This document shows positions 2,790 through 51,363 of a stretch of 64,000 bases of DNA, one piece after another. Below the pieces are notes generated by a model that was given only the letters and a program-made list of their open reading frames with translations, was not told where the DNA came from and did not search any database. Each line of letters begins with the position of its first letter. Position 1 is the stretch's first letter. A program made the translations under genes and the position numbers. The stretch is from Eukaryota sp. GEM-RC1 (lineage: Eukaryota), in the NCBI GenBank assembly GCA_040285855.1, contig JAUFOQ010000006.1, positions 558,001 through 622,000 on the forward strand. The letters run 5' to 3'.

Positions 2790-3799
2790 TTACCCATCTT
2801 TCGTCGTTGCTCCATGTTTGTCAACTGTTGCGTTCATCTCTTCTGGTTTAAATACCGGTAAATCTAATAGTCTGAAAATGTCATCTATTCGACTTGGAAC
2901 TCTCTTCTTTAGCTCTATTTTCGCATCGTGATCTAATGGTTCAATCCCATGATTACTCAGCGAATACCCTTTGTTTTTAGCCCATGAACGAATAGATATG
3001 TTGAATGTGACTGAGCCTAGTCTACCTAAAAGTTGAAATGGATACTCTTTCTCACTAGTAAACCAGACGTCAACCTGTCTAGCTGGATGATGTGGGTCCA
3101 ATTGTATCACCATATATGCAAGATCCTTGGATTCAGCAATCAAATCCAATAGCAGGCCCTTTTGTTTTAGTTGTTCCAACACAGCCTTCTTCACCTCTTG
3201 ATGAGCTTTACGATCACTTCTAGAGTTCATTTGGACAAGAATGTCCAAGTTTCCTGCCTCTTTGTATCCTCGTCTGAAACTACCAACAATCTCGACTGAT
3301 TTGACCTCGGCAGAATGTGCAAGGTACAATTCCCGTATCACTTCAAAGATCTGTTCTGCTTCATCTAAGGGAATACGTTTCTGCAAGTCCAAATGATGCT
3401 TCAATCCGATTTTTTGCATTGATGTCAGTTTTTCAAAATGTTCACTTTTTTCAAGTTGTCAATGGACTTTATCCCTTTGTTCCAGTATTCTTCTGCTGTT
3501 GTTGGTCCAAATCCCAATACATCAGAAAGTTCTTTAATAAATTTGGATTTAGGATCCATTACAGTTGTTCTCAAACTCCCCCTTTGCAGAATTTCTTTGA
3601 TCTTCTCCCGTGTTCTAACTCCAATGCCCTTCACGTCTTTGACATCATTTTCACTTTGGATCTCGAATGGAAGTGCTTTAATAATAGCAGCAGCTCGTCT
3701 GTTGGCTTGTGCTCTATATCTATCATGCTTAGCACTGCATATGGATGCCAGTTTGAACAACTCTGAAGAGATTAGAGTATTGTTTTCAAATTGCGACAT
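2790..3799 (-). CDS. DNA polymerase family X (Pol beta-like), split by a 1-nt indel in an A-run near 3445
   Basis: HhH motifs VKGIG and VLGFGP, VGSFRRG, palm NLD..RQVD, thumb GYSLSNHGI; ORFs 3425..3799 and 2790..3419 join if A6 becomes A7. Confidence 0.9.
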
Positions 3800-4149
3800 T
3801 GGAAAGCAAAAGGATTTCTCTTTTTGATTGATTAATGACTGTTGACGTCATTTTGTCTTTGAGAAGATCAGAACAATGAAGCTCCTTCGATGGTATTTCC
3901 AAGAACAACGTCTATTTTTGAACTACAAAGTATTCGAAATTGCTTTGTATCATCTCATTTCTTGATTGAGTGCCAACCAGGTCTAGGTTTGATGTATAAG
4001 CCAATGTGACGGTTTACAATTTATTAAATTGATCGAACTTCACTCAAACTCAAATCAAATTTAGACGAATTAATCAAGTAATACAGTAATAAAACTAATG
4101 AAAAAACTACAAAAATAATAACTTAGAAATTTTAATCATTAAGGTCATT

Positions 4150-5271
4150 CTAATGATTCATGTTCTTTTCATCAAGCAAAACTCCATTTAATTCATAGAT
4201 ATCCAAATGCAATGACTTCCGAATATCCATAAACATTTGAAGACCTTGTTTTTCAGGAGGACTTGGACAAATCATTAGAGCTAAGGGCATAGGTTCAGCA
4301 TCATCACGAAGAGGCGGTAGAAGATAAATCACATTCGATGGCAGCTTAAACAAACGGAAACCACATCTCTTGTAAAACCCAATTCTCCTAAGAGCCATAT
4401 CTTTCCCTGCTTCATCCTCCATATACTCAGGGAGCTCCACTTCCAGTACTAATGGATGACGAGTGTTTGTGTTTAGTACCTGCTTCAAGCATCTTAATAC
4501 TGCTTTACCAACACCACCGTTTCTGAATTGTTTAGATATAGCAAACAGTTCAACGAAATCATATTCTGGAGTTCTGAAAAAACTAATTAGACCAACTCGT
4601 TGCTTTTGTTTTGTATGTATCAGAAGCATGTAATAACAAGCTCTGTGTGATTTTGGTCCTTTCTTTATTAAATCCCAATGTACGTGTGGTTCTGGAAACT
4701 CTTCAGGTGGGAATGATGTCTGCAGTAATGAATGGGAGTAGTCCAACTCCGATCTATTAGAGACAACGGTGAAAAAGAGAGTGTTGGTGATACGTTGTGT
4801 CTTGTTATTGACTAGATTAAAGCCAGATCCAAAGAAAACGCTGGAATATAGTAGATTGAAAGTAATTGTCGTGTAAATGTCAATGATATCATCGTAGTTT
4901 TTAGGCAGTGGAAAGAAAGCGAAGTGACGGTAGACTGTTAGGGTGTCAATGGTTAGAGCTAGACAAGCAGATGTGCAGAGAGGGACAGACAGTACAAGAG
5001 GCGATGTGTGAGCGGAATTAAGACGAGCTTGAAGTGTCGATAAGAGGAATTTGAAGACAGCTTCAGAAAGAAAATTACCAGCCACAGCGTCCGACGTTGA
5101 GTGATTAGTAGTGAATTGAGAGATGTAAAACGCATTTTCAAGAGGAAGTATTGAGACATCAATGGAATCAATCGACCAATCTAGGTCTGGATTGAGTTCA
5201 ATAGTTTCAGTATAAGGAGATAGATGGTCAGGTATTGATCCATTTATGAAGGGGCAGTGGAATGAAGGCAT
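4150..5271 (-). CDS. GNAT-family N-acetyltransferase domain protein (copy 1)
   Basis: FAISKQFRNGGVG acetyl-CoA motif A, LVLEVE, RRIGFYKRCGF; ATG at 5271 matches the start of copy 2; the upstream ORF extension lies in a hAT end. Confidence 0.8.
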   Translation of the reverse strand: MPSFHCPFINGSIPDHLSPYTETIELNPDLDWSIDSIDVSILPLENAFYISQFTTNHSTSDAVAGNFLSEAVFKFLLSTLQARLNSAHTSPLVLSVPLCTSACLALTIDTLTVYRHFAFFPLPKNYDDIIDIYTTITFNLLYSSVFFGSGFNLVNNKTQRITNTLFFTVVSNRSELDYSHSLLQTSFPPEEFPEPHVHWDLIKKGPKSHRACYYMLLIHTKQKQRVGLISFFRTPEYDFVELFAISKQFRNGGVGKAVLRCLKQVLNTNTRHPLVLEVELPEYMEDEAGKDMALRRIGFYKRCGFRLFKLPSNVIYLLPPLRDDAEPMPLALMICPSPPEKQGLQMFMDIRKSLHLDIYELNGVLLDEKNMNH

Positions 5272-5291
5272 GAATCTAGATGACTGTTGAT

Positions 5292-6462
5292 TAGGGCTGT
5301 CAATTTCTCCCATTTCTCCCAACTCCCACCCAACTCCCATCTCCCATGACCCTTGGGAGTGGGAGTGGGAGCTTCAGTAGCAATTTTTGGGAGTGGGAGT
5401 GGGAGTGGGAGCTCTCCGTTGGGAGGTGGGAACTCCCAAAATCTCCCATCTCCCATTTACAGACACAACTCTAACTTCAATTTAAAACAGAAACAAGCTA
5501 GCTAGACAAATACAGTTATAATTTTTCTAGAATATTAATAGGACTAGGTTTATTACATTTTTACTGTCTTTGTTTTGTTTTATTTATTTTCGTTTTATAA
5601 AGAGCGTGGTTGTTTATCTGTAAATTTCAACCAATGTCATCGCTTGATTTATCTGAAGATCCTGAAAACTCTGGTCTGTTTAAACATCCTGATTTTATTG
5701 AATTTGTTTCCTCTCTTTCAGTTTCAAAATTCCAAAAAGAACCACGATAAGAAATGATATGTTGAATGTTTATGAGTCATTTAAAGGATACTTGATAGAT
5801 AAATTCAAAAATGTGTGTAATTCTTCTAAAGTATCTATTAGGATTGATAGATGGACATCGAATACAAACAAGCATTTTAATGGGGTAACAGTTCACTGTA
5901 TTGAAGACTGGAATTTAAACATTTACAATGTACGTCCACGGTTTTAAGCACCTGAAAGAAAACCACACTGCCATCAACATTGCCGATGCTGTGGAAGAAA
6001 TTATTACTGAATTTGGTTTAAAATACAAAATGTGTTGTGTTTCAACAGGTATTCACGACTATCCGCATACATTGTATGCTAAGAACTTTATGACAACACA
6101 AGCCTCATCAGTTCCAAGTGAACAGTTATTTTCTCAGGCAGGGTGTGTTGTTACGAAGTTACGAGCATCCTTGAGTAGTGATTCTATTGAAGCAGTCCTT
6201 TGTTTGAAATCATGGTTCAAAGGTCGGGAGATGAGAGAGTTGTTCATGAATCAGAGATAGAGTTAGTGATTGTTATGTTTATAAAGTAAAGTGTCATTGT
6301 ACTAGAAGATACAAAAATGGGAGTTGGGGGGGAGTTGGGAGAATTTGTTGGGAGTGGGAGTGGGAGTGGGAGTCTCACCTATGACAAGTGGGAGGTGGGA
6401 GTGGTAGTGGGAAAACACGTGTTGGGAGTGGGAGAAACTCCCATCTCCCATTAACAGCCCTA
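5292..6462 (+). mobile_element. Internally deleted hAT DNA transposon
   Basis: TIR TAGGGCTGT/ACAGCCCTA, perfect 8-bp TSD CTGTTGAT, subterminal GGGAGT repeats, transposase remnants (IDRWTS; ASSVPSEQLFSQAG...LCLKSW). Confidence 0.92.
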
Positions 6463-7038
6463 CTGTTGATGCGATCAAAAAGAGTTCCCTCATCAAAACT
6501 AGAATGTTTTTCCATGTTCCTCCACTCACCAACACTTCTCAACTCCATATTCACCTTGGTCATTTGCTTCGTCTTAGAATTCTTCATCATCAAATTCAGG
6601 GAATTCAACAGGTTGATACCCTCTCTCAACACTTGCTAACCAATTGCGACCATTGCTTACTCTGTTTCCCCGTCCTTGTTGCAATGATGTCAATTGTCAT
6701 CTTTATCTTCCCTGGTGGATTATCTTAGTTCTCAAGAAAGACGGTTTTTTGCTGTCTTCATCTGCATATGTCTGATCTGGTGGGCCAAGAAGATCTGATA
6801 GACAATGGTGTATATAAGAATTTATCATTGTATATCAGTACATATAGTTGTCTTTGGCATGTGACTCACATGCTGTGAGTATATGTTCCAGACGATCTCC
6901 TGTCTTCAATGTCAGTTCTCGAGCTGTTTCCCAATCTGCTACATGGATGATGGTCCAGAAGCTCAAGCATTAACAAATCTAAAAATTTAAAATATTCCAG
7001 ATTTTTAGTCAAACAACGTTCATTTAGTTAGAATCATT

Positions 7039-8159
7039 CTAATGATTCATGTTCTTTTCATCAAGCAAAACTCCATTTAATTCATAGATATCCAAATGCA
7101 ATGACTTCCGAATATCCATAAACATTTGAAGTCCTTGTTTTTCAGGAGGACTTGGGCAAATCATTAGAGCTAGGGGCATAGGTTCAGCATCATCACGAAG
7201 AGGCGGTAGAAGATAAATCACATTTGATGGCAGCTTAAACAAACGGAAGCCACATCTCTTGTAAAACCCAATTCTCCTAAGAGCCATATCTTTCCCCGCT
7301 TCATCCTCCATATACTCAGGGAGCTCCACTTCCAGTACTAATGGATGACGAGTGTTTGTGTTTAGTACCTGTTTCAAGCATCTTAAAACAGCTTTACCCA
7401 CACCACCGTTTCTGAATTGTTTAGATATAATAAAGAAATCAACGAAATCATATTCTGGAGTTCTGAAAAAACTTATAAGGCCAACTCGTTGTTGTTGTTT
7501 TGTATGTATCAAAAGCATGTAATAACAAGCTCTGTGTGATTTTGGTCCTTTCTTTATTAAATCCCAATGTACATGTTGTTCTGGATACTCATCCAAATGA
7601 AATGAAGATTCAAGTAATGAATATGAGTAGTCTAACTCCGATCTATTAGAGACAACGGTGAAAAGAGAGTGTTGGTGATACGTTGTGTCTTGTTGTTGAC
7701 TAGATTAAAGCCAGATCCAAAGAAAACGCTGGAATATAGTAGATTAAAAGTAATAGTGGTGTAAATGTCAATGATATCATCGTAGTTTTTAGGCAGTGGA
7801 AAGAACGCGAAGTGACGGTAGACTGTCAGTGTGTCAACGGTTAGAGCTAGACAAGCAGATGTGCAGAGAGGGACAGACAGTACAAGAGGCGATGTGTGAG
7901 CGGAATTAAGACGAGCTTGAAGTGTCGATAAGAGGAATTTGAAGACAGCTTCAGAAAGGAAATTACCAGCAACAGCATCCGAAGTTGAGTGATTAGTGGT
8001 GAATTGAGAAATGTAAAACGCATTTTCAAGAGGAAGTACTGAGGCATCAATGGAATCAATCGACCAATCTAGGTCTGGATTGAGTTCAATAGTTTCAGTA
8101 AAAGGAGATAGACGGTCAGGTATTGATCCATTTATGAAGGGGCAGTGGAATGAAGGCAT
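7039..8159 (-). CDS. GNAT-family N-acetyltransferase domain protein (copy 2), 1-nt indel near 7660
   Basis: Near-identical to 4150..5271; A4 versus A5 run explains the split into ORFs 7632..8159 and 7039..7596. Confidence 0.8.
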
Positions 8160-8169
8160 TCAATCACTA

Positions 8170-8310
8170 CAAAAAGTATTTAAGGAAATTCTTCAGTCTG
8201 TGAATTTCTCTTAAGATGAATTCCCCATAACGAATTATGGACATTCATCTACACTCACAGTGCACATGGGCTGTGGCGGTTCTATCCCTTGCGGGTCCGC
8301 CACTGTTTCT
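8170..8310 (-). ncRNA. Candidate Fanzor omega RNA scaffold overlapping the Fanzor stop codon
   Basis: Minus strand: GUGGCGG..CCC-GCAA-GGG..CCGCCAC (GNRA loop), AGAUGAAU..CCAUAA-UUCG-UUAUGG..AUUCAUCU (UUCG loop), UUAAG-GAAAUUC/GAAUUUC-CUUAA hairpin; position matches TnpB/Fanzor omega RNAs. Confidence 0.65.
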
Positions 8311-11256
8311 GTTATTGAATCTTCATTGTTGTTTGTACTCTTTGCTGCTCTCTTCCGTCTTTCTTCAGCTAACTTGTCAGAGAAACACATTGGTCGATCC
8401 TCACCAGCGAGAGTACACTCAACAATCTTTAGAATATTCAAACAGCTATTGAAGTCTCGATTCCAGAGTTTATGACATTTTTTACAACGCACTAAACCCC
8501 AACACTTGACTTCATCGGGCTCTTCCTGCCACAACAGCTTATCATCTTCGTCCGTCCAACTAGACCAATTCCTCAGCGCTAATAGGCGATTTGCCTTCTT
8601 GTCAACTCTTCGCTTCTTCTTCCGGAAGTTTGGATCCTTGACTTTAAGGAAGGTTTCCGTTTCCCCTTCGTCATTGTTGTTCTCAGAACATCCGTGGCAC
8701 TGAAGAGATGTCCTGAATTCGTTAACCAGAAGAACCTGATAGCCAGCTTTTTTGAACAACTTTCTCGATCCTTTCCCCATGGATGGAGGCTTGTATTTCC
8801 TATGCCTTGACTGACTCCAATCACCTATGGCCAACCACGTATTGGTTGGATCTCCGTAAACTTGACGGAATCGATGGAGCATTTTACGTTCACTTTTTTC
8901 CTTGTATACTGATTTCCAATAGCTCCATTTGCGCCATTTAGATTGATGGTACAGAGACTCCATTCTATTTGCATACTTGTAGAATTGTTGGACGTACGCT
9001 TTAAATTTTGAAAAATTTGTTGTTTTGGAAGTAAATTCTGAAAATTCTGTCTGAATCTGTTCAGCTGTCAGTTGTCTTCCTGAAATTTCGTTAAAAGAAT
9101 AGTTTTTGAAGGCTTGGTTCTGAAGTACATTGTATTTTTTTTGTTTTCCTTCGTGCCTTCGAGTTCCTTGAGTATATCTCATTTTTTTGAATTGATTTTT
9201 CTTTTGAAGTGGTCTCTTTTTACTTGATTTTTTGACCTCATTATTCTCTTTTTGGAACTGGGCTTTATGCCTTTTAATTTCTTTCAATCTCTTCTTTTCA
9301 TATGTTTTTGAGATTTTTGGGTCAAGTGGGGAGCACAATGCCCAGGATTATCAATTTCTTCCTGGGTTTTTCTTCCAACCAAGTACAGAATATCCCATTG
9401 GTTAGGGTCCCCCACCACGACTTTTTTTATTTTTTAAATCCTCTAATTTTTCAGGATGTAAATCTTCCACATACTCCTCTTTTTCCTCCGGAGACTTGGC
9501 AGAGTATGGTTTGAACAGTAGATCATTTCTGGTCATCATGAGACTGATTGATTCACCATTGGTAGTTATCTGGTGACCAAATGAATACATCTTTTTGAAG
9601 GTGTTCAAGTATTTGTGATCAAGATTCAAATACTGGCTCCAAATTTGATTTTTAAATAAATTAATGTTTTCGCTTAGATGTTTTCGATTATAACCTTGAA
9701 CTTGAGGTTTAAATAAATTAATCATAGCTAGCGTATCCAATCGAAGGTGATCAGGAATTAAGCTGGTGGATTGTGGAAACATGCGGTACATCTTTGGTGG
9801 AATCTCATTACAGGAAGGGTTATTCTCAATCAATTTGTTGAGAACGAAGGCCTCTGGTAAGAGCTCCAAAGGCTTTACCTTTAATTGGTATTTGAGTCCT
9901 TTAGAGTCTGGCTTAAAGTTTTTGACAAATGTAATGAAATTTTGATGTTCATCTGATGGATTTTGCCAGATCTCGGTAAAATCAATATCGGATCCTCTGC
10001 CTTCTAAAATTTCTTTAAGGATATTATTGGACAACTTTTGCAACTGGTCTTTTTCGACTTTTTTTAAGTGCATTGTTTTTAATAATTTTTAGTTGTCCAT
10101 TTAAATTAAAGAAGAGTTCCCATGTTTTTTCCAAATATTCAATAAAACGGGATGAAATATTATTTTGATACATTGTAACAATCTCAGTAGCTGTATAATT
10201 CAATGTACGAGACATATCAGAGTACATGACATTGGGAATTTCCATATCCACGGGGAGAAGAATTTGGATATAGAAGCATCCCAGTTGAATTTTCAAAGCA
10301 TTGTGCTTTTTGCCTGGAGTACTTTGAACAATCTCAGTTACCCATTTGAGAATTTCACTTCCATCAATATTTTCCTCATTTTTAAATCTTTGATGAGCTA
10401 ATGGAGACAAGTATCCAATAGTCCAGAGCAATTGTTGGACACTCTCTTTGGTCCATTCTACTGGATTCAATTCCTGATTATCAAAAGAGTTCATGCAAAA
10501 GCCTTGAAGTAGCAGCAATGCACGTTGTTTAATTCGGTGATGATTTATAGAAATTTCATTTACCAATATGTTGTTATCAGTCCACACAGATTTTAGGGTT
10601 ACTTTAACCGTTTTTTCACCCGGGCATCTTAGCAATTCTTGTGTTTCGACTTGAAGGAAATACACAAAAAGGCTTTGTAATTCAACAATATCGTTAAAAT
10701 GTTCACGTAAACATTTCAAGTTTTGTTCAGATGTGAAATCTGTAGAAACTGGTGTGGGAACTGAATAACTTTCATTTTTTAAAATGTTCTTTACAACAGT
10801 AACCCAATTCAAAGATTTTCCAGTTCTAGGTCTGTAATAATTTCTAATAACACGGCCCAAATCTATTAGCTGAATTTTTGAATTTTTGAATTGTTTTAAA
10901 AAATATTTGTAAAAGAGAGGACACTGAATATTTGAACAATTCTCTGATTTTAAATTAAATTCATCCAACGTAGAACTTGCATCATAACCAATTATCAGAC
11001 CACAGTCAGTTAAAACTAAATAATCATTAAACGCACTAATCATAGATTCCTCTTGATTAAACGCTTGAACATTCACTCTAGCATGCTCAGAATTAGGTGA
11101 CAGAACTGAATCGCAACTTTGTTGTGTAGTGAATATAATTGATTCTACAATTGAAATTACTTGGTCCTGGACCTGAACTGTTTGAGTGATTATTGATGTG
11201 ATTATTATTTTGTCTTTTTTCTTTTTTAGTTTCTTTAGTAGCTGCTGAAGCTTCAA
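8235..11256 (-). CDS. Fanzor1-type (eukaryotic TnpB/OMEGA) RNA-guided endonuclease, split by homopolymer indels
   Basis: RuvC-I VVVGDPN (D at 9407-9409, in a frame missed by the ORF track), LAIGDWS, RuvC-II LVNEFRTS, zinc finger CHGC...CKKC, RuvC-III WNRDFNSCLNI; upstream ITTNGESIS and YQNNI segments resemble Fanzor1 N-terminal regions. Confidence 0.88.
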
Positions 11257-12160
11257 TCATTTTTACAAAAATGCATTTAATCGAGTGTTTGTGATCTAAC
11301 ATTAAGGTTACGTTTTCGAAAGGATCTTTTCTTTTTTTAGACTTAACTGGTGATTCTTTTTCGTTTGTTTTTTCATTTGTTTTTACTGCCAATGGGCATT
11401 TTCTTATATCATGACCAGTGTTTCTACACTTTGAACATTTACGCCCAATTGGTTTTTTCACCAGTTGAGGTTCGTTTTCATTATTATTGTTTGATCGTTT
11501 TTGTTTTCTTGGAGGCATATTGCTGACAGTGGCAAGCCTTTTTCCTGGATTAACGTGGCTGTCCAGTTTCAAGTTCAATCTGATACGAAATTGAGAGGGA
11601 TCAAATTGATGATGCATAATTTCATTTTGAAAATCTGTCATCATTATACAGTGATCAATGTGACCAATTGTTTCAACATTAAATGTCTTAAATAATACTT
11701 CAATAAAAAACAGAACAAATATGCCACAATCATAACCATTGTCCTGTTTCACAGTATTAATGTGACAATGGTAAAAATGGTTTGGGCAAAACGATTGTAT
11801 AAAATCAATTTTTGAGGACAACAAATTACTATTAGAGATAGAATCCATGAAGTATAACGTGTCAGTCATGAAATCTATAACACATAGTCCCCAGTGAGTT
11901 CCAGCAAATCCGTCAATAATACCATTGTTCATGAGAATAAGAACAAGCCGACAATCTGCATTTTTTTCTCTTATATCATGATAAATAACATCTTTCTCTA
12001 CCGTTAGAAAGTTATATACATGATAAAAATCCAATAGTTTGATTGGCGAGTGGGTAATCCAAACTGATATGATTTATGGAAAAAGAAGGTGGAATAGCTC
12101 TAACCATTCACATTCAGACAACAATGTTATGTCTTCAAATTCATGTGAGTTAAATGATAC
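11093..12160 (-). CDS. C48 (Ulp1/NEDP1-SENP8-like) cysteine protease plus CCHC zinc knuckle; probable N-terminal part of the Fanzor polyprotein
   Basis: DITLLSECEWL, GTHWGL (His), YFMDS (Asp), QDNGYDCG (Gln/Cys); CSKCRNTGHDIRKC knuckle at about 11394..11443. Confidence 0.82.
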
Positions 12161-12184
12161 CGGTCCGGGATTCGACTCGATATC
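12161..12184 (-). other. 2A-like ribosome-skipping (StopGo) motif DIESNPGP
   Basis: LFVVDLTNDGDIESNPG|P exactly matches D(V/I)ExNPGP with a preceding G and a hydrophobic upstream segment. Confidence 0.85.
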
Positions 12185-12409
12185 ACCATCGTTGGTTAAA
12201 TCTACCACAAACAAATGAATCAAACAAAATTTGAAATTGTGTTTATTCTCCAAATCAAAAGTGAATTGCTTTTGTCGAGTTTTACAACAAGACACGGACC
12301 ACTGCGGTATTAACTCATCAGGAGTTGCAGATATCAAGCTGTTAGCCTCTTCTCTGCAACTGCCCTGAGTTGTTAATCCTGGGTTAGGGCCGTAGTCCCC
12401 ACCCAAATT

Positions 12410-12694
12410 CATAACTGAAAGGACGGAACTTTCAGTCTCAACTGGATACAAAACATCCAGCCGAGGAGGATTGGAACCTCTTATAGTGTTAGGAGGATTG
12501 GAACCTTCCTGAACACATAACTGAAAGGACGGAACTTTCAGTCTCAACTGGATACAAAACATCCAGCCGAGGAGGATTGGAACCTCTTATAGTGTTAGGA
12601 GGATTGGAACCTCCTGAACACATAACTGAAAGGATGGAACTTTCAGTCTCAACTGGATACAAAACATCCAGCCGAGGAGGATTGGAACCTCTTA
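12410..12694. repeat. About 2.7 copies of a 105/106-bp tandem repeat rich in hairpins
   Basis: Units start at 12411, 12517 and 12622; near-identical; encodes 35-aa RGSNPPRLDVLYPVETESSVLSVMCSGGSNPPNTI on the minus strand. Confidence 0.95.
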
Positions 12695-13693
12695 CTGTGT
12701 GAGACATCAACAAACCTGATGGAGTCATGAGACGGAAATAAGTCACTGTCGACATTGTTATTGATTGTTCATCACTTTCCTCTCAGCAGGATTCCGTTTC
12801 ATAGGGGATTTTGATTTTACCAACAGTTTTCTTTTCACTTTTTACTGCTACTGATGCAGCTTTCTCAGGTATCAGCGTCTTGCTAGTCCTAACACGCTGT
12901 GATTGACTTACTTTCTTTCTTGAAGGTGTTCGCTATATATGCACTGACTGGTGCTACAGGTCTTATTGCTGTCTTCTATGATGCTGTTAGATTTAAGGAA
13001 TACGAGCTTCTTCTCATTCTGGCTTTTGGAATTCTTTCACCATTTGCTGAACTTGTCTGCAAGGACGACAATAGCTTCGACTCTTCTTCAGGTCTAGAAA
13101 TCATGGTTAAGTTGCTGCGTTGTGTACAAGTGGTTTATGTCTTCCTATAATGCTATTCCACATTGACAATATAGCCGCCATCCCTCTAACTATTGATTTA
13201 AGCGGGCTATGCTTTTCTACTCCTCGGTATTCATTTTTGTTGAGAAAGTTGCTCCTGACAACGACTCCTTTTAGTTCCTGTTTTGTTCATTGTAGATAAA
13301 CTCAATCAAACAGTATCCATTTTATCTTCGTATCCGTCTCTTCCTTATAGTGTCTCTGTAATAGTGTGATTCCTTTGAGTGTGGGTATACACTTTTGACA
13401 TGATCAATGCTAAATATCACACATCAGTCTTGTTACTTGTTCTCTTCTTAAATCAAGACGCTCTTTCATACCCTAGATAAACAAAATGATAGCTATGGAT
13501 TGTACAGAGTTTATTGATTCTATACATCTAGATAATGCACACAAAACTTAAACGTTGCAAAACGGAGGTGTTAGTGGTATCAAAAGAAAGCTGTCACATA
13601 AACCTATGTCTGTATAAAACACATCACATTTTAACAATGTCTACAAGGAGACATTGACATTTGACATTTGTATTGGCTATACGTCGTCAGCAA

Positions 13694-15931
13694 ATGTCAC
13701 TAGCATTCGGTTTGGGCAAAAACAAATTCTTCAGTTGTTCCCAAACCATTCCAACAAATGCTCCTTCTGCAATGAACTTACCGAAATTTGCAGATTCAGC
13801 CAATGTCAAGGTCGTTACAAGATGTCGACCTGTTGTCAATGATAAGTCTGTTGCACAAATATCTGGTGACACCATTACTTTGTCAGATAATTCTACTGAT
13901 GAACCTATAGAACGTACTTTCCAGTTTGACAAAGTCTTTCCGAGTAACACGGACCAACCTGAGTTTTTCAACGATGTTGGTAAAGAACTTTGTGATGTTG
14001 TTCTTAACGGCTTCAATGCTTGTATTCTTGCATACGGTCAAACTTCTTCAGGAAAGACCTACAGTATCGTTGGAGAATGTCCCGAAACCAGGGGCATTAT
14101 TCCTCTCTCCTGTGAATATCTCTTCTCCCAAGCAACTAGACGATCTCCTTACTTCAATGTTACCATCTCAATGTCCATACTCGAGATCTTTCTCAACCAA
14201 ATGATGGATCTTGGTCGGGAAGCTGTCCAAAAGCTCAAAAACTTTCCATCATCTCGGATTAGTTACTCTCCTGCTGCAGTAATTCCCTCCCCAGCACCTC
14301 CTTCCTACTCACAGGATGACGTTTGCATCCCTCCTCCTCCAATGGTGCGTCCTGCTTCTGCCAAAGATCCATCGACCTTCTCTCCTCCATCGCAGAACCT
14401 TGTTATCAGGGAAGAGTCGAAAGGAAAAACACATCTTCATGGACTAGCTCAAATAACAGTCACTTCAATCGACGAAGTCTCTAGAATTCTCACTGAAGCT
14501 CTTAAAGTACGTCATTCAGCTCACACACTTCTCAATTCCCACTCTTCACGTTCTCACCTCGTGGTAACCTTCTCTGTTACTCAAACCTCCATCCGCAACA
14601 CCTCCAACCAAGCAGCAATCACTGGAAGTCTATCCGTAGTAGATCTAGCTGGCAGTGAGCGTATCAAGAAGAGTCATGGAATGGAGGTGACTACAGAACG
14701 TAGAAGGGAAGCCGCTAGTATCAACTCAAGTCTTTCCGTCCTAGGAAACGTAGTATCATCACTTTCTGGAGGTAGCTCTCACGTTCCCTTTAGAGATTCA
14801 AAACTAACACGTGTTTTACAGTCATTGGGGTTAGGTCAAGGTGGTAATTCTTATATTATACTGTTAGCAACTCTATATCCATTGGCTGCTCACTTTTCTG
14901 AGACTCTGAATACGTTAACCTTTGCTAATAGGTGTTTGGCTATTCAGACTGGTCCGAGAGTTAATTATAATCTTTTAGATGAGCATTCTTATCAATCTAA
15001 ACTACGTGAGCTGCAGGATACGATTGTCCAAATGACTGGGAAGATCAATCAATTACAAGAAGAGCTCAGCGAACGTGATGAAAGATTACAAATGAAACAA
15101 AGTATGGGTGTGGTTGAAGGTCAAAAAGATGACGTTAATTTGAACTATGATGATGTGGCAATGTCACGTCAAGCGATTAATACAATCAATAAGCTCGAGA
15201 ACAGGTTCAGGACTGCTCAGGGTAATAACGTTGCTGCTTTAGTACGGCAAGTTCAACGGACGTTAAAGTACAAGAATGAGGTTGTTGAGGTGTCTGATGA
15301 AAATTCACGACTTTTGAGCGAATCACGTGAGCTTTTGAGCCGGCAGAATGATTTGTATCAAAGTGAATTGTCCCATGCCTCTCAGTTGACTGCTGAATTA
15401 ATGCATCAATGTGATGAACTGAAGACAAAACATCAGTTAGAGGGAATTAGAGCACAAACTGCTATTCAATCGTCACGAAGTGGTTTGCTGTCGAGTAATT
15501 TTAAGAGTTCTAAAAATTTAAATAATTCAAAAGTTGATGGAGTCACGAACTCTAATTATAACAGACTCTTGGAGCAAAAAGACTCGGAGATCGCCCAGTT
15601 GAAATCACAAATCAGTCAAATGCAATCAGGTCACGATACTCAGATTAAATCAATTTCAAAAGAGGCTCAAAAACTGTTTAAATTAATGAGGCAACGTGAT
15701 AGGGTCATTAATGACGTCATCACCGGTCGTCTATCAGATCATATTCATTTTGGTGGTATTAAAGGCCGATTTCTTGATTTGCCGGTCAGTCAGAAACCTG
15801 CCACTTTCAACGTTTCTGAGTTTAAAGAGCTCTATAAGCTGACGTCATTGATTAGTGATGACGATAGGATATTATCGGTTCCAAATTTTAGAAAAAGAAG
15901 ACCGAGGTCAGCTGCTCCGTCGTGGGTTTGA
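13694..15931 (+). CDS. Kinesin motor protein with C-terminal coiled coil
   Basis: VVTRCRP, FQFDKVF, P-loop AYGQTSSGKT, NSHSSRSH, VDLAGSE, HVPFRDSKLT; start could also be ATG 13772. Confidence 0.95.
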   Translation: MSLAFGLGKNKFFSCSQTIPTNAPSAMNLPKFADSANVKVVTRCRPVVNDKSVAQISGDTITLSDNSTDEPIERTFQFDKVFPSNTDQPEFFNDVGKELCDVVLNGFNACILAYGQTSSGKTYSIVGECPETRGIIPLSCEYLFSQATRRSPYFNVTISMSILEIFLNQMMDLGREAVQKLKNFPSSRISYSPAAVIPSPAPPSYSQDDVCIPPPPMVRPASAKDPSTFSPPSQNLVIREESKGKTHLHGLAQITVTSIDEVSRILTEALKVRHSAHTLLNSHSSRSHLVVTFSVTQTSIRNTSNQAAITGSLSVVDLAGSERIKKSHGMEVTTERRREAASINSSLSVLGNVVSSLSGGSSHVPFRDSKLTRVLQSLGLGQGGNSYIILLATLYPLAAHFSETLNTLTFANRCLAIQTGPRVNYNLLDEHSYQSKLRELQDTIVQMTGKINQLQEELSERDERLQMKQSMGVVEGQKDDVNLNYDDVAMSRQAINTINKLENRFRTAQGNNVAALVRQVQRTLKYKNEVVEVSDENSRLLSESRELLSRQNDLYQSELSHASQLTAELMHQCDELKTKHQLEGIRAQTAIQSSRSGLLSSNFKSSKNLNNSKVDGVTNSNYNRLLEQKDSEIAQLKSQISQMQSGHDTQIKSISKEAQKLFKLMRQRDRVINDVITGRLSDHIHFGGIKGRFLDLPVSQKPATFNVSEFKELYKLTSLISDDDRILSVPNFRKRRPRSAAPSWV

Positions 15932-32908: not shown

Positions 32909-33802
32909 CAGCAAGAAATCCATTTTTAAATTAATCGTAGTACATGTACATTTGTTTGCATTTGCAAACAGAATTTGTACAGAATCTATTTCTGTACAAA
33001 AGTACATGTGTTGTAACAATGGCACATGAAATTTTATCACAGCTGTCGCAACATGCTAACTTTTTCTTCTGTTTCTGCAAATTTCTCTAGATCGTTACTG
33101 ATTTAAGACTGACAATAAAAAGTCAACAAATCTGACCTGACTGTTTGTACTACGCACCATCGTAAATTTCTTCTAATACAGACCACTTCAAATTTAATAC
33201 AAGCAATTACATTTGTTTGCTTGTAATGAGATCATTGTTTGTGTTTAAGGCGCCAAAGCGTTGTTCTCAAGATTATACTGTATTACTTCCGATATTTCTT
33301 GTTGTTGGATTGGTTTTTCGGCCGCAGACAAAAATTGACAAACAAAAGTATTGTTACAATGCATTACAATTGTACGCCATATCTGTTCCTTTTATGAACT
33401 ATTTAGAAGTTACTGTAACGGTTTAATCCAGATAACCGCTTTGTTTTTATAGTTATTGTATTTATTCCGAATGTAATAGACTAAACAACTAAAATTTGGT
33501 ATCGTTAAAACAACACCCATCACAATCAAATCTTACAACAGCTTTGTCCTCATAACAGGAACTCACATCGAATAAAGCATTGGAGATGAGTAGGGGAACC
33601 GCTTTGTTATAATTTATCCAACTTTAAGATTCAGTCACATTCTTGATGACGTGACGGCTTCCATAAAGCGACAGTCATAAATGGCATCCAATTAGTGAGG
33701 CCAAGAAGTTGAAAATTTGTCTAACACGCGTTTGCAAGTGTGGAATACATTGTATGTGCGTTCTTTGGTTAAAAATGATAGAAGTCAGTTTAGATTTCCT
33801 CA

Positions 33803-35875
33803 ATGTCAATACCTTCACTTCCCAATTACACTTTAGTGCGGCTCGTTGGATCTGGAGCCCACGGGAGCGTCTACTATGGCTATCACAATAAGACCAAACA
33901 AGAATGTGCTGTGAAAGTCACAAATAATCGAAAACGTGTCTCATCTGCCGAATTCCGTCAAGAAGTTGCTCTTCTTAAACGTCTATCTCATCCTAACATT
34001 CGTCGATTGTATGATGTCATTGAAGATTCAAAGAATCAACTTTTCATAGTTCTTGAGTTCTGTGACTGGGAGTTGTTAAGAGAGTCTGACATTGGAACCT
34101 CACATACTAGTTTTGGACTTAGCTCTCTCAGAGACATCTTCCTTCAAATTTGTACAGCATTGTCTTATATCCATTCTCAAGGTGTTGTTCATAAAGATGT
34201 CAAGCCTTCTAATATCTTAGTTGCTCGTACAGGTGCTGCTGGAAATGCTGACAAACGTATAGTACTCAGTGATTTCGGCATATCTTCATACATTGAAGAT
34301 GATATTGAGTCTACGATGCAAGGAACACCTCTATTTATGGCACCAGAACTTCTCTCTCCTGGAGTATCTTCGGAGGACATGAATAACCCTGCTGTTGATA
34401 TGTGGGCTGCTGGTGTTTCCTTCTACATCCTTGCCTTTGGAGTATCTCCTTGGGGAAATGTTACAAATCGCCAGGAACTCTTCTCTATTGTGTTGGCATA
34501 TGCTTCTGACAATTTCTCCATCGATTTTCCTCCCGTAGACCCATTTCTCAAAGATTTGTTGTTGAAATGCCTTGATCCGAACCCTTTAACCCGAATTTCC
34601 TCCTTCCAAGCACTTAAACATTGTTGGTTCAGTGAAGGTGAATGTTCTTCGTCCATTCCGGATTCCTTTGAAACAATTGGAGACTTTTCACAAGAGGAAT
34701 TAGATACTGCTGTTACATATGTCTCTGAAATGGCATTTCAAACAAATCCCCGAAAGATTGAACAATGGAATTTGCCAACTTTAACTGAAGCTCAAAAAAC
34801 CTTATTGCTATTGGAATCTACTGTTCAACTATTCAACCTTTGCAACAACACCATTTCTATGGCTCCAGATGACGTCAACACTCCCGCACGCAGAGATCTT
34901 GACAACAAAGTCACTGCTCTATTGAAGGAGGCCCGTGGAATGAACGTTTCTCCCAATATGGATGATCTTATGGATCTATTCAGGAGATGGGTGGAGGTAG
35001 TTGAAAGAGATGCTAGGTATGGAGCGGAAGAATCTCCAAATCCCTGTCAGTTATCAACTAAGCATTTAAAGTATATATTGGATAATGTTCTGCCTGTTAT
35101 CAGACATTACCTCGATGAGTTTTCCAGTAAGTTAGACTCTTGTACCACTGGTAGTTGTGAAGGGAAATGTGCAGGCAAATGGTCTTCTGTTGATGCTAGT
35201 AAGTTCCGTCAGTTTTTCCAAAAGTCATTCAATATTATTAGGTCCAATCCAATGTGTAACACGTGTATTCGCTTCGTTTGCAACAACAACGTCGTTCTTG
35301 AAGAACGTCCAAACATTCCATTCCACACAATTGTTCTTGATGTTGGATCGTCGACTAACCCATGGTCTTCTTCTTCGTCGTTTGATGAACTGCTTGAAGA
35401 ATCAAGAATTGGTCACATGGTGATTATGCCTTCTGTGGCAATGGACGTTCTAGCTGAGATCCTAACCATGTCGTTGAGGTTCTCCCCTCCTGGATCTGTT
35501 ATTAGAGCAGCAATCTGGAATGACACAAACGACGATGGAAAACGTCTGCGTATTGTTTGCCAAGACTTCTCTGGTGGAATTAATGATGCTACTACTACAG
35601 ATTGTCAAGAAGGATTATCTAAAGGTGATTCGGTGGCTAAGTGTTCCATAATCACTGAAACCTTCCTCAATGGAACGTTTACTTACACAGAGGATGTAGG
35701 TTATGGTATTATTGACATCAATGTCCCTGTTCCTGAGTCATATAGTCTACATGTTCCAATTACAAAGGAAAGTTCCTTTCTACTTAAATTAGATAGCATG
35801 TACACTGAAACGGTGGAGTTTGTGAGCACAATTTCCGATACAATGTACAGTACCATTTTGAGTTCATTGAGGTAG
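33803..35875 (+). CDS. Ser/Thr protein kinase with C-terminal degenerate HATPase-like region (copy 1)
   Basis: GSGAHG, AVK, HKDVKPSN, DFG, GTPLFMAPE, DMWAAG. Confidence 0.92.
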   Translation: MSIPSLPNYTLVRLVGSGAHGSVYYGYHNKTKQECAVKVTNNRKRVSSAEFRQEVALLKRLSHPNIRRLYDVIEDSKNQLFIVLEFCDWELLRESDIGTSHTSFGLSSLRDIFLQICTALSYIHSQGVVHKDVKPSNILVARTGAAGNADKRIVLSDFGISSYIEDDIESTMQGTPLFMAPELLSPGVSSEDMNNPAVDMWAAGVSFYILAFGVSPWGNVTNRQELFSIVLAYASDNFSIDFPPVDPFLKDLLLKCLDPNPLTRISSFQALKHCWFSEGECSSSIPDSFETIGDFSQEELDTAVTYVSEMAFQTNPRKIEQWNLPTLTEAQKTLLLLESTVQLFNLCNNTISMAPDDVNTPARRDLDNKVTALLKEARGMNVSPNMDDLMDLFRRWVEVVERDARYGAEESPNPCQLSTKHLKYILDNVLPVIRHYLDEFSSKLDSCTTGSCEGKCAGKWSSVDASKFRQFFQKSFNIIRSNPMCNTCIRFVCNNNVVLEERPNIPFHTIVLDVGSSTNPWSSSSSFDELLEESRIGHMVIMPSVAMDVLAEILTMSLRFSPPGSVIRAAIWNDTNDDGKRLRIVCQDFSGGINDATTTDCQEGLSKGDSVAKCSIITETFLNGTFTYTEDVGYGIIDINVPVPESYSLHVPITKESSFLLKLDSMYTETVEFVSTISDTMYSTILSSLR

Positions 35876-35973
35876 TTCATTTTTTGATCTGTATCTTTTG
35901 TCTAACAAGATAATTGAGTAACAAGTTGTGAATTTAGGTTGTCTTTATATTTTTTGTTTGGGAACATGTCTAC

Positions 35974-36667
35974 CATAGTTCGAAATGCGAACGTGTTATT
36001 CAGTTGCCGTATGGAGTACGGCAGAACACGTGCGAGAATACCGTATTCTTACATAAACACGTGTTGCATTTCTTTTATCATATGGTCCATTACATTAGAA
36101 CATTGTACTGATGCTGTAAATGAGTTTTATGATTTCGAGAACAAACGTAGCTTTTACAAAAAACCATCATCAAAATCTTTGTGGGAAAAAATTGGCTCAC
36201 GAGGTCGTATTCTTCGTAGGTGGCAGCTTCTACTGGTGCTGCCGAGAGAAATTGGATTGTACAATCCATCATTAAAAAGAGAAACACAATAGGATGAAAG
36301 CTTCACTGAATGATTTGGTATTTCTTTACGCCACTCAAACACTGAAACACCAGATTATTCAAATCGCTCAAAAAGATCTTGTGGTCCCCAGAGAAATTGA
36401 TCACCTTATTGCTGAACCTCAAGATGAGGACCATGCCATTCTTGAAGAAGAACCAGAACATCGTATTGTTGTGAATCTCTACCTTAATGAAGAGTTGTAG
36501 TTTTTGTTTCATCAATAGTAATGTATAATATAAAATAGGTGCTGGTTAACAGAAAAGAGTATTAAAAAGAAGAATACGTTGGAATACGGTAAAAAGAAGC
36601 CGCACGTATTCCGCACGTGCGCGTACGGAGTACGTTACCGAAGGTGCCGTACGCATTTCGAACTATG
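35974..36667. mobile_element. hAT-type non-autonomous element
   Basis: 16-bp TIR CATAGTTCGAAATGCG; 8-bp TSD ATGTCTAC. Confidence 0.92.
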
Positions 36668-36987
36668 ATGTCTACCCATTTTGTTATTACAAATTAGCAA
36701 TTTACATGTATGTCATGGCAAACGGAATATCATTAAATATTTCAACAACATGGTTTTTTACAGTTTTGATAGTAAATCAATAGTAAAGCTGCTAATCAAT
36801 ATGGGTGTAATGATGCAATGAATTAGGGCTGTTAATGGATGGATGGATGTGGACGACAATACTTTCATCCATCATCCACGTGGATCAACGAAAACTAATC
36901 CACCGTCCATCCACTGTCATTGATGGATGACTATATAGATTACTTGAAAAAATAATTTAACGATTAATACAGTTCTTTATTTAAAAA

Positions 36988-37142
36988 AACGGGGTTTATG
37001 ATCAATCAGTGAAATAAATGCATTTGCAGAAATTAATAACTAACAGACACTAACTAAAGTATCTAAACTATGATCCTTCTGCCCATCACCGAACAACTTA
37101 CCTAAAACTAAATTAAAATATCTGTGCATTGAACGAAACAAC
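36988..37142 (+). repeat. Dispersed ~150-bp repeat, second copy at about 60507..60660
   Basis: TTTATGATCAATCAGTGAAATAAATGCATTTGC...GTGCATTGAACGAAACAAC shared with few substitutions. Confidence 0.85.
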
Positions 37143-37646
37143 GCAAACATCAATCTACACCAATCGGTTTAAATAGTCTGAATCAGACTATTTCTAGTCC
37201 AGACTAATTCTTTATCCAGACTAATTAAACCGTTTGGTGTACTTAACTCAAAAATTTTTCATTGAAAACTCTACCGTGTTGTATGACAGAGAAGATGGTA
37301 AAGGAGAACTGTTGTCATCGTCACCATCAATGTTAATCATAGTTAGGAAAACAGTATACTAGAACAAGAATGCAAAGAAAAATTGTTCTTTCTTCCAAAT
37401 AGAATCATTTTAGTACTACAGTTGCATTCCATGATCAAATATAACTAACATACATGTAAATACGGTATATACTCTGTAAACCCAAGGAAACTAACTGTAT
37501 TCGGTACCCAAAAAGGCACCCTTCCTAGGGGAATATATATTTGCAAAAACAAGGAAATGTAATGAGTTGTTACTGTACAATAAACAAATTTACAAAAAAA
37601 GATGAAAATAAACAAATCTCCTAGTCCTATCTCGAAAGAAAGAACT

Positions 37647-39728
37647 TTATATCGATGAACTCAAGATAGTGCTGTACATTGTATCAGAAACTGTACTCAC
37701 AAATTCTACCGTTTCAGTACACATGTTGTCCAACCGAAGTAGAAAGGAACTTTCCTTTGTGCATGGAACATGTAGACTATATGACTCAGGAACAGGAACA
37801 TTGATGTCAATAATACCATAACCTATATCCTCTGTATAAGTAAGCCTTCCATTGAGAAAGGTTTCAGTGATTACACAACACTTAGCCAAGGAAGCACCTT
37901 TAGATGATCCTTCTTGACCCTCAGCAGTAGTAGCATCATTAATTCCACCAGAGAAGTCTTGGCAAACAATACGCAGACGTTTTCCATCGTCGTTTGTGTC
38001 ATTCCAGATTGCTGCTCTAATAACAGATCCAGGAGGAGAGAACCTCAACGACATGGTTAGGATCTCAGCTAGAACGTCCATTGCTACAGAAGGCATAATC
38101 ACAACATGACCGATTCTTGATTCTTCGAGCAGTTCCTCAAAAGAAGACGATGAAGAAGAAGACCATGTGTTAGTTAATAATCCAACATCAAGAACAATTG
38201 TGTGGAATGGAATGTTTGGACGTTCTTCAAGAACGACGTTGTTGTTGCAAACGAAGCGAATACACGTGTTACACATTGGATTGGACCTAATAATATTGAA
38301 TGACTTTTGGAAAAACTGACGGAACTTACTAGCATCAACAGAAGACCATTTGCCTGCACATTTCCCTTCACAACTACCAGTGGTACAAGAGTCTAACTTA
38401 CTGGAAAACTCATCGAGGTAATGTCTGATAACAGGCAGAACATTATCCAATATATACTTTAAATGCTTAGTTGATAACTGACAGGGATTTGGAGATTCTT
38501 CCGCTCCATACCTAGCATCTCTTTCAACTACCTCCACCCATCTCCTGAATAGATCCATAAGATCATCCATATTGGGAGAAACGTTCATTCCACGGGCCTC
38601 CTTCAATAGAGCAGTGACTTTGTTGTCAAGATCTCTGCGTGCGGGAGTGTTGACGTCATCTGGAGCCATAGAAATGGTGTTGTTGCAAAGGTTGAATAGT
38701 TGAACAGTAGATTCCAATAGCAATAAGGTTTTTTGAGCTTCAGTTAAAGTTGGCAAATTCCATTGTTCAATCTTTCGGGGATTTGTTTGAAATGCCATTT
38801 CAGAGACATATGTAACAGCAGTATCTAATTCCTCTTGTGAAAAGTCTCCAATTGTTTCAAAGGAATCCGGAATGGACGAAGAACATTCACCTTCACTGAA
38901 CCAACAATGTTTAAGTGCTTGGAAGGAGGAAATTCGGGTTAAAGGGTTCGGATCAAGGCATTTCAACAACAAATCTTTGAGAAATGGGTCTACGGGAGGA
39001 AAATCGATGGAGAAATTGTCAGAAGCATATGCCAACACAATAGAGAAGAGTTCCTGGCGATTTGTAACATTTCCCCAAGGAGATACTCCAAAGGCAAGGA
39101 TGTAGAAGGAAACACCAGCAGCCCACATATCAACAGCAGGGTTATTCATGTCCTCCGAAGATACTCCAGGAGAGAGAAGTTCTGGTGCCATAAATAGAGG
39201 TGTTCCTTGCATCGTAGACTCAATATCATCTTCAATGTATGAAGATATGCCGAAATCACTGAGTACAACACGTTTACCAGCATTTCCAGTAGCACCTGTA
39301 CGAGCAACTAAGATGTTAGAAGGTTTGACATCCTTATGAACAACACCTTGTGAGTGTATATAAGACAATGCTGTGCAAATTTGAAAGAAGATGTCTCTGA
39401 GAGAGCTAAGTCCAAAACTAGTATGCGAGGTTCCAATGTCAGACTCTCGTAACAGCTCCCAGTCACAGAACTCAAGGACAATGAAAAGTTGATTGTTGGA
39501 ATCTTCGATAACATCATACAATTGACGAATGTTAGGATGAGATAGACGTTTAAGAAGAGCAACTTCTTGACGGAATTCGGTGGAAGATACGCGTTTTCTG
39601 TTGTTCATAACTTTGACGGCACATTCTTGTTTGGTATCGTTGTGGATCGCATAGTATACCGATCCGTGGGCTCCGACTCCTAAGAGTCTCACCAAAGTGT
39701 AATTGGGGATTGAGGGTAGAATCGGCAT
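37647..39728 (-). CDS. Ser/Thr protein kinase (copy 2, inverted duplicate of 33803..35875)
   Basis: Same kinase motifs; central region essentially identical to copy 1. Confidence 0.92.
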   Translation of the reverse strand: MPILPSIPNYTLVRLLGVGAHGSVYYAIHNDTKQECAVKVMNNRKRVSSTEFRQEVALLKRLSHPNIRQLYDVIEDSNNQLFIVLEFCDWELLRESDIGTSHTSFGLSSLRDIFFQICTALSYIHSQGVVHKDVKPSNILVARTGATGNAGKRVVLSDFGISSYIEDDIESTMQGTPLFMAPELLSPGVSSEDMNNPAVDMWAAGVSFYILAFGVSPWGNVTNRQELFSIVLAYASDNFSIDFPPVDPFLKDLLLKCLDPNPLTRISSFQALKHCWFSEGECSSSIPDSFETIGDFSQEELDTAVTYVSEMAFQTNPRKIEQWNLPTLTEAQKTLLLLESTVQLFNLCNNTISMAPDDVNTPARRDLDNKVTALLKEARGMNVSPNMDDLMDLFRRWVEVVERDARYGAEESPNPCQLSTKHLKYILDNVLPVIRHYLDEFSSKLDSCTTGSCEGKCAGKWSSVDASKFRQFFQKSFNIIRSNPMCNTCIRFVCNNNVVLEERPNIPFHTIVLDVGLLTNTWSSSSSSSFEELLEESRIGHVVIMPSVAMDVLAEILTMSLRFSPPGSVIRAAIWNDTNDDGKRLRIVCQDFSGGINDATTAEGQEGSSKGASLAKCCVITETFLNGRLTYTEDIGYGIIDINVPVPESYSLHVPCTKESSFLLRLDNMCTETVEFVSTVSDTMYSTILSSSI

Positions 39729-39941
39729 TGAGGAAATCAAAACTGACTCTGACCTTCATGTTAGGATTTTTGACTAGGAATGCAGAAACACGTGTTTGAC
39801 CAATTTTCTACTTGTTTGTGTCACTAGATCTGTCACTACAGGGAGATGTCACAATATCAAGGAAAGCAATTGGTTGCGCTGATGAAGTAGGTGGTCGCAG
39901 GAATATGTGAAGAGACGTTAGGGAGTATTGGGTTGCGGGTT

Positions 39942-50407: not shown

Positions 50408-51363
50408 ATGCCACAAGATTACTATGATCTTCTAGGAGTTTCTCGTTCTGCTACTGACAAAGAAATATCAAAAGCTTATCGTAAACTTGCTCTTAAATAC
50501 CATCCAGACAAAAATCCAAACAATCCTGAGGCCGAAGACAAATTCAAACAAATAGCTAACGCCTATGACGTTCTCAGTAATCCAGAAAGACGTAGAATCT
50601 ACGATCAATTTGGTGAAGAAGGCCTAAAGGGAGGTGTCCATGATTCTTCAACAGGAACACCTTTCTCTGGTTATTCTTTCAACCCAGACTCTGCCTGGGA
50701 CATCTTTGAACAATTCTTTGGTGGTCGATCCCCTTTCTCAAGCTTCTTTTCTGATGATACTTCCCCTTTCTCGGCCTTTTGGCACTGGTGGATTCCATCA
50801 CATGGGAGGCTTTGGCCAGCAAAAGCCTGCAGACGTCATCCACGAAGTCCAAGTAGATCTAGCCGACCTCCTCTACGGACGTAACAAAACGGTCAAAATC
50901 TCTAATCTATCACGTTTCCGAAGCGATGGAACCATGTATACTGAAGACAAAACCTTTAGAGTTGAAGTTCGTCCAGGATATAAGGATGGTACTAAGATTA
51001 GATACAAGGGCGAAGGTCCTCAACAATTAAACACCCCGCCCTCAGACATTGTCTTTATAGTCAGAGTGAAAGCTCATCCTAATTTTGATAGGGACGGTGA
51101 CAATCTCTTGACTACTGTGCATATACCTCTCTCAACTGCTTTGTGTGGTGGTGTGATGAATGTACCAACATTAGACGGGAGGGTTCTACATCAGTCAATT
51201 AATGAGATCACTGAACCTGGAGCAGAGAGATTGTTGAAAGGGGGAAGGTATGCCTAATCCTAGAACTGGAATTAGGGGTTCTTTGGTAGTCAAGATTGCT
51301 GTTGATTTTCCAAAGTATCTTTCGGATCATCAAAAAGCATCGTTAAAGTCGATTTTAGGTTGA
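50408..51363 (+). CDS. Class B DnaJ/Hsp40 (Sis1/DNAJB-like), two homopolymer indels
   Basis: J domain with HPD, G/F region, C-terminal [24 protein letters not shown]; extra T near 50780 and extra G near 51243. Confidence 0.92.

Follow-up and report, generated by a model that had tools for sequence, protein, structure and literature searches.

Hairpins across the stop codon of a broken Fanzor1 gene in Eukaryota sp. GEM-RC1 are a likely omega-RNA scaffold

The stretch of DNA analyzed here (the window) consisted of 64,000 nucleotides of contig JAUFOQ010000006.1 of Eukaryota sp. GEM-RC1, and its content was eukaryotic, with ORFs recognized by eye as kinesin, DnaJ and kinase-like, and with relics of hAT elements. 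It contained a Fanzor1 gene in four frame pieces, separated by three breaks, the annotation and organization of which are as follows:

8235..9338, minus strand: Fanzor1 C-terminal frame, with the GD of RuvC-II (8828-8817), the alternative Glu in NEFRTS (8723-8706), a C4 zinc finger and the RuvC-III WNRD (8465-8454)
9288..9433, minus strand: Fanzor1 RuvC-I segment with GDPN (9412-9401), in a shifted frame
9402..10073, minus strand: Fanzor1 middle frame, REC/WED, with TNG replacing the TDG motif at 9563-9555
10024..11256, minus strand: polB-exonuclease-like segment (~11229-10980, under the Pfam cut-off), followed in the same frame by the Fanzor1 N-terminus (from ~10614)
11093..12034, minus strand: Ulp1/C48 protease domain and CCHC-knuckle-like motif, likely of the same polyprotein as Fanzor; copy P0047 reads into the exonuclease-like frame

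The ORF ending at 8235 carried PF07282. A PDB profile search with the window protein and 17 relatives matched only SpuFz1, PpFz1 and GtFz1, and the single-sequence search matched PpFz1 and SpuFz1 with E-values of 1e-12 and 1.2e-11. The structure model had a mean pLDDT of 77; all seven of its Foldseek matches at E ≤ 0.001 were Fanzor1, while mimivirus Fanzor2 was reached only at E 0.018. Judging from its sequence (the alternative RuvC-II Glu stands just before the zinc finger) and from its modeled Fanzor1 fold, the gene adjoining the hairpins described below is Fanzor1. The catalytic D-E-D was present (GDPN at 9412, NEFRTS at 8723, WNRD at 8465), spread over the broken frames. The TDG motif in WED, given as a Fanzor1 feature (PMC10711439, in excerpt), was absent, and TNG was aligned at its position both here and in copy P0024. 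In addition, a lysine-rich stretch of ~190 nt (9390-9200, minus strand) with a frame change inside, either an insertion or an intron, separated RuvC-I from the bridge-helix motif; in relatives this gap takes up ~10 residues. A 30-residue insertion was present in the zinc-finger region.

Directly upstream of the Fanzor1 N-terminus, the region 12034-10024 (minus strand) encoded the Ulp1/C48 protease domain (E 7.9e-11), the CCHC-knuckle-like motif (11437-11396) and the polB-exonuclease-like segment (E 1.6e-4, under the cut-off). In copy P0047 the reading runs on from the Ulp1 frame, across the exonuclease-like part, to Fanzor; a Ulp1/exonuclease-like/Fanzor polyprotein of more than 1,200 aa is therefore likely from the reading frames. 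An open frame longer than 720 aa occurred in only one of 160 related loci. Among the matches listed, no paper contained both 'Fanzor' and a Ulp1/SUMO-protease term, and the excerpts of PMC3627910 made no mention of protease, OTU, Ulp1 or exonuclease. Further upstream, about three tandem repeats of 106 bp (12410-12703, minus strand) gave a very stable fold (z -6.65), each unit with four hairpins, two of them with a 7-nt loop resembling that of a tRNA T-arm, and another stable fold (12300-12420, minus strand, z -5.26) came after them. No tRNA was called in the tandem-repeat region, and Rfam gave no match at E ≤ 5 in 12000-13700. These folds are possibly the 5' end of the element.

Proteins near-identical to the pieces of this gene were retrieved under the label Eukaryota sp. 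GEM-RC1: four copies of the C-terminal piece (one being the window's own), two of the middle piece and three of the N-terminal piece. The copies were 94-99% identical and kept the D-E-D. Two of the three breaks in the window gene lay at A7 runs (10065 and 9428). The first break is bridged in P0045 and P0047, whose frames stop elsewhere, whereas P0024 has two breaks in common with the window gene; the breaks differ between copies, at or near A-runs, and all copy proteins retrieved were fragments. No full-length copy was found among proteins of 568-2000 aa, which is weak evidence, and the window held neither a second Fanzor nor a gene-less copy of the element end. Both assembly error and decay fit the frame breaks. 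In the four C-terminal copies, 14 of 242 columns were variable and none of these fell in the last 33, which is not statistically significant evidence of constraint (P 0.12, protein level). Given that the C-termini of the four copies are identical, the repeat unit extends at least to the stop codon.

On the 3' side of the Fanzor1 gene, two copies of a GNAT acetyltransferase gene (4145-5271 and 7034-8159, minus strand) were 95% identical, with homology from the ATG to 5 bp past the stop. The second copy, which neighbors Fanzor1, was broken by the loss of one base in a T-run (T5 to T4). A hAT relic with terminal inverted repeats (TAGGGCTGT...) occupied 5292-6462. Both copies of its 8-bp target duplication (CTGTTGAT, at 5284 and 6463) were present, and the insertion lies 12 bp upstream of the ATG of a GNAT gene. 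Elsewhere in the window, DNA polymerase beta-like and DnaJ-like genes split across frames and an inverted 2.1-kb duplication with two kinase-like genes were observed (2790-3799, 50408-51257, 33783-39748), together with a tRNA-Asp at 2098-2169.

The candidate RNA spans the end of the Fanzor1 gene and is read on the minus strand, the Fanzor sense strand. Its features are given below; in the model that we favor the scaffold would be closed by a basal stem, and in a rival model it would end at a local hairpin made of the same bases:

8273..8303, minus strand: SL1, a 7-bp GC-rich stem with an inner hairpin, inside the last 22 Fanzor1 codons; predicted first stem-loop of the omega-RNA (from folding, the synonymous null and the 7-bp SL1 of PMC11423790, in excerpt)
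8251..8262, minus strand: predicted 5' arm of the basal stem in the favored model, part of the local hairpin in the rival one (from folding)
8250..8264, minus strand: local hairpin UGCAC-UGUGA-GUGUA, like the terminal stem of viral relatives; scaffold end in the rival model (from a match to their end profile)
8215..8249, minus strand: hairpin 2, a 14-bp interrupted stem with a UUCG loop (from folding)
8180..8214, minus strand: hairpin 3, 11-12 bp with a 10-nt loop (from folding)
8165..8179, minus strand: predicted 3' arm of the basal stem, containing the U5 run; predicted right end of the element near 8165-8160 (from folding and tail controls)
8145..8164, minus strand: putative guide in the favored model, made of flanking sequence that reaches into the GNAT acetyltransferase gene copy, whose ATG is at 8159

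The three hairpins of the first-pass annotation were all found where it had placed them. In SL1, GUGGCGG (8303-8297) pairs with CCGCCAC (8279-8273) over 7 bp around the inner CCC-GCAA-GGG (8295-8286), with a pair probability of ~1.0 at all seven transcript ends tried. Hairpin 2 has arms at 8249-8235 and 8230-8215, the 5' arm holding the stop codon UAA (8237-8235), and its UUCG loop (8234-8231) is closed by an A-U pair. The extra-stable UUCG tetraloop has the form C(UUCG)G; hairpin 2 is not of this form because of its closing pair, and the loop loses the weight that had been put on it. Four bases past the stem of hairpin 3 lies the U5 run (8175-8171), and a scan for terminator-like sites returned none. 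Two extra stems with a common 5' arm had been overlooked: the local hairpin (8264-8250) and the basal stem (8262-8251/8179-8165). In longer folds a 14-bp long-range stem (8327-8314 with 8164-8149, minus strand) joined the region upstream of SL1 to the predicted guide. It may be due to chance; if real, it would mask the predicted guide in the unprocessed transcript.

The sense strand of 8170-8310 folded with -42.6 kcal/mol (z -4.32; none of 200 shuffles reached this), compared with z -3.33 and 2 of 200 shuffles for the antisense strand, and therefore the strand bias was only modest. Among 774 strand-tiles of 141 nt this region ranked 29th, many of the 28 higher tiles being in repeats; it must be noted that the scan covered the window up to 54,559 and that, with 10 shuffles per tile, it was noisy. 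The RNA fold is thus real yet not extreme, good but not exceptional in a repeat-rich window. When the last 25 codons were recoded synonymously, 8 of 1500 draws were as stable with the codon usage of the gene and 49 of 1500 with uniform codons. The codons of SL1 are rare in the gene (NCG in 3 of 7, against 12 of 137). In 7900-8700, Rfam returned eight matches at E ≤ 10, all of them far under the gathering scores. Exact-pattern scans for SL1 (viral contigs) and for the UUCG hairpin (prokaryote genomes and viral contigs) gave no hit, and no relative was found when viral contigs were searched with the locus as a single sequence.

Relatives of the element were sought among Fanzor1 elements of giant-virus-like contigs, akin to the Bodo saltans virus Fanzor (P0015), at 160 loci (L001-L160) with 30-38% identity. 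The RuvC-III motif was scorable in 75 of 80 viral loci (31-38% identity), and 70 of these 75 had a shared terminal motif 180-311 nt past the RuvC-III W; at the window locus the corresponding distance to the end predicted by the favored model is 301. An inverted copy of the motif stood upstream in 24 of the 75. Within each of 11 groups that agree in their last 40 nt, the flanks differed, the variation beginning right after the terminal motif, which is therefore the element end. The alignment comprised 44 of 56 distinct ends, 12 having been dropped by eye before counting (four near-duplicates, one mis-called end, seven large indels). The RNA of the relatives consists of a 5' hairpin, a linker and a 4-bp basal stem closing two hairpins. 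This structure was hand-drawn and scored on the same alignment from which it was derived, being 85.3% paired against 70.4% when shuffled, with covariation of 0.425 against 0.169 (0 of 500 shuffles as good). The covariation support rests on the three hairpins, because the basal stem hardly varies (a double change in one of four pairs). The covariance model R2 matched 74 of 80 metagenome loci, some of which are the same contigs as in the training set. At the window locus neither R1 nor R2 gave a match, the best local score being 3.9 bits on the wrong strand.

The RNA of the window is therefore akin to that of the viral relatives in position and topology only. The two share a protein clade, a structured RNA across or just past the stop codon, the order of 5' hairpin, linker and basal stem, and internal U-runs. 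In contrast, the viral elements have terminal inverted repeats of ~20-35 nt and stand-alone ORFs of ~650 aa, and their RNA model has no score here. A stop codon fell within the last 105 nt of 48 of the 56 distinct relative ends, and runs of at least five U within the last 110 nt of 38 of them. Both being common, neither is special at the window locus, and the particular weight put on the U5 run finds no support.

The three Fanzor1 RNAs with solved structures provided a second comparison. In all three SL1 has 7 bp, as predicted here, while the remainder varies and the lengths range from 75 to 150 nt (PMC11423790, in excerpt). The GtFz1 omega-RNA of Guillardia theta (PDB 9cer) resembles the window RNA in its ~150 nt, in overlapping C-terminal codons (17 there, 22 here) and in having a 7-bp SL1 followed by three more stems (PMC11423790 and PMC10432273, both in excerpt). 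However, expression and cleavage were shown for GtFz1, whereas the window RNA is predicted, and the likeness is one of description. SpuFz1 and PpFz1 (PDB 8gkh, 9cf0), the best protein matches, have a 7-bp SL1, a short linker and a second stem abutting the guide, which for SpuFz1 is stem 2 (PMC10432273, in excerpt), and the scaffold of the rival model is PpFz1-sized. Spu-1 differs in its 30-nt inverted repeats and single-nuclease ORF; a search for inverted repeats in the window element found none, and its ORF is probably a longer fusion. According to the excerpts of PMC10530073, the RNA abuts the right end of the element, and those of PMC10711439 describe Fanzor1 RNAs as devoid of a pseudoknot, ending in bases that form a stem and reaching ~15 nt past the target duplication.

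In attention to the above, the hairpins across the Fanzor1 stop codon are likely the scaffold of a predicted omega (guide) RNA. The structured RNA lies at the 3' end of the Fanzor gene on the sense strand, the protein is a Fanzor1, the first stem has 7 bp and relatives carry an RNA at the same place. We hold with good confidence that an omega-RNA module is present, wherever its boundary is set. This part of the initial reading stood, while the switch or pseudoknot and the emphasis on the U5 run and the UUCG loop did not.

As regards the boundary, the end of the element should lie between 8235 and 8160, because the copies share sequence to 8235 and homology to the GNAT host gene begins at 8159, just past the end of the basal stem. 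For the 5' arm 8264-8251, pairing with 8179-8165, 8254-8250 or 8205-8198 gives folds that differ by no more than 3 kcal/mol. The favored model, to which we give somewhat better than an even chance, has the module closed by the basal stem and ending near 8165-8160, with the guide taken from the flank. For a scaffold ending at 8160 its fold has the lowest energy (-43.9), with a basal pair probability of 0.49, but the probability of the basal stem ranges from 0.0 to 0.49 depending on the 3' end, with two other folds within 3 kcal/mol, and 31 of 500 shuffled tails and 55 of 500 random genomic tails paired as well. Neither candidate terminal stem beats its control convincingly. We prefer the favored model on three grounds: no new biology has to be invoked, the two hairpins downstream are accounted for, and the model agrees with the C-termini shared by the copies, all four of which have in common the residues encoded past 8250 in the 3' direction, as a variable flank would not. 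Its topology is also that of the relatives. No left end was found, and inverted repeats to either candidate end did not rise above background. The pair 8165/11131, predicted and then found (a 10-mer unique in the window, expected 0.005-0.013 times for the region), suggested a CACTA/EnSpm element at 8165-11131 with a 3-bp duplication; this candidate was rejected, since the exonuclease-like Pfam match and copy P0047, which shares sequence to at least 11260, cross 11131.

In the rival model, which we regard as rather unlikely, SL1 and the local hairpin (8267-8247) form a short, PpFz1-like scaffold of ~55 nt, 8250-8248 is an old transposon end, and a guide starting at ~8249-8247 lies inside a larger element and is the same in the copies, the downstream hairpins sequestering it or serving 3' processing. 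Against the end profile of the relatives, the 3' arm of the basal stem scored -15.5 bits, while 8256-8248 reached 3.1 bits, the best in the 315 nt past RuvC-III and a score attained by 0.12% of window positions; over ~100 positions, however, such a match arises by chance about once in nine, and its 5' arm, just upstream and paired in the register of the relatives, scored only -0.2 bits. The distance from the RuvC-III W to this end would be 216, close to the relatives' median of 219.5, SL2 of PpFz1 has 4 bp (PMC11423790, in excerpt) and the local hairpin has a probability of 0.09-1.0 depending on the 3' end. A 12-nt exact match to the 5' end of this guide (8249-8238) was found at 1847-1836 (minus strand), with an expectation of 0.02 for this 12-mer, but it emerged after four candidate guides had been tried and the surrounding sequence is dissimilar; the first 18 nt of the guide had no exact match in viral contigs. 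Moreover, this guide would be tied up in a stem (probability 0.99), and in published Fanzor systems the guide lacks conservation from copy to copy (PMC13565253, in excerpt). No fixed-guide Fanzor was found by title or abstract start among the matches listed. Quite improbable, in our judgment, is the fuller scenario in which a larger mobile element engulfed the end of a Fanzor1 transposon, giving rise by fusion to a 2A-Ulp1-zinc knuckle-exonuclease-Fanzor polyprotein, with the omega-RNA ending near 8250 and all copies carrying one fixed, hairpin-locked guide; the result would be a eukaryotic RNA-guided nuclease whose target is hard-wired rather than set by the flank. Alternatively, the local hairpin may be left over from an older end, its stem later re-paired to a new one.

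It is unlikely that no working omega-RNA exists here and that the hairpins belong to a decayed relic, to a DNA-level end structure of the element or to the 3' end of an mRNA, the Fanzor family being dead. The good fold of the opposite strand, the 28 tiles that rank higher, the silence of the covariance models, the fragmentary copies and the TNG in place of TDG all point that way; on the other hand, the near-identity of the copies with D-E-D kept, the breaks that vary by copy at or near A-runs (these and the GNAT base loss fit assembly error as well as decay) and an SL1 that uses rare codons and beats the synonymous null argue against it. The first-pass annotation had also proposed that CUGUGA (8260-8255) and UCACAG (8203-8198) pair as a switch or pseudoknot, toggling the RNA between mRNA and guide states. 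The complementarity is there, extends to 8 bp (8260-8253/8205-8198) and gives the minimum-energy fold of 8310-8150 (-46.1), with a probability of 0.62 at that 3' end; at the other five ends that include it the probability was 0.19 once and 0.01-0.03 in four cases, and in 8140-8330 it was 0.009. In full, this pairing encloses hairpin 2 as a nested stem and disrupts hairpin 3, and with only four bases in a loop it is not a pseudoknot, a feature that Fanzor1 RNAs are in any case reported to lack (PMC10711439, in excerpt). Such a switch is very improbable. An omega-RNA of the TnpB/Fanzor2 type, in which the bases before the guide form a pseudoknot with the SL1 loop (PMC10711439, in excerpt), was discarded: the protein is a Fanzor1, and the proposed pairing involves neither the SL1 loop nor the bases before either candidate guide.

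Under the favored model, and by analogy with other Fanzor systems, the omega-RNA would be cut out of the 3' transcript of the gene, ending near 8165-8160. As in the solved Fanzor1 complexes, SL1 (8303-8273) would dock on the RuvC/zinc-finger surface and, after a 10-nt linker, the basal stem (8262-8251/8179-8165) would close both long hairpins as a three-way junction against WED. About 15 flanking bases, starting near 8164-8160, would be taken as the guide. A guide beginning at 8159 would have 15 nt without mismatch to the paralogous GNAT gene at 5271, while one beginning at 8161 has two 5'-end mismatches to it. The nuclease would then cut the empty allele of the insertion site, repair favoring retention of the element; guides are not conserved among copies, and cutting of the empty site by such nucleases was shown for TnpB and IscB (PMC13565253, in excerpt). 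Because the frame is broken in the assembly, the omega-RNA of this copy would be loaded in trans by the protein of an intact copy, if one exists.

Among the matches listed, no paper joined 'Fanzor' with the strain label of protein P0003. The locus appears to work like, and probably is, a Fanzor1 omega-RNA, and hence a further example of a known system. It would add a lineage and a GC-rich, GNRA-capped SL1 to the known class, which is useful for tool mining and not surprising. The short scaffold, if true, would matter more, because the Fanzor guides published so far differ with the flanking sequence. More unusual than the RNA is the upstream Ulp1/exonuclease-like fusion, which, if real, would also matter more; the fusion and the fixed-guide reading are both worth following.
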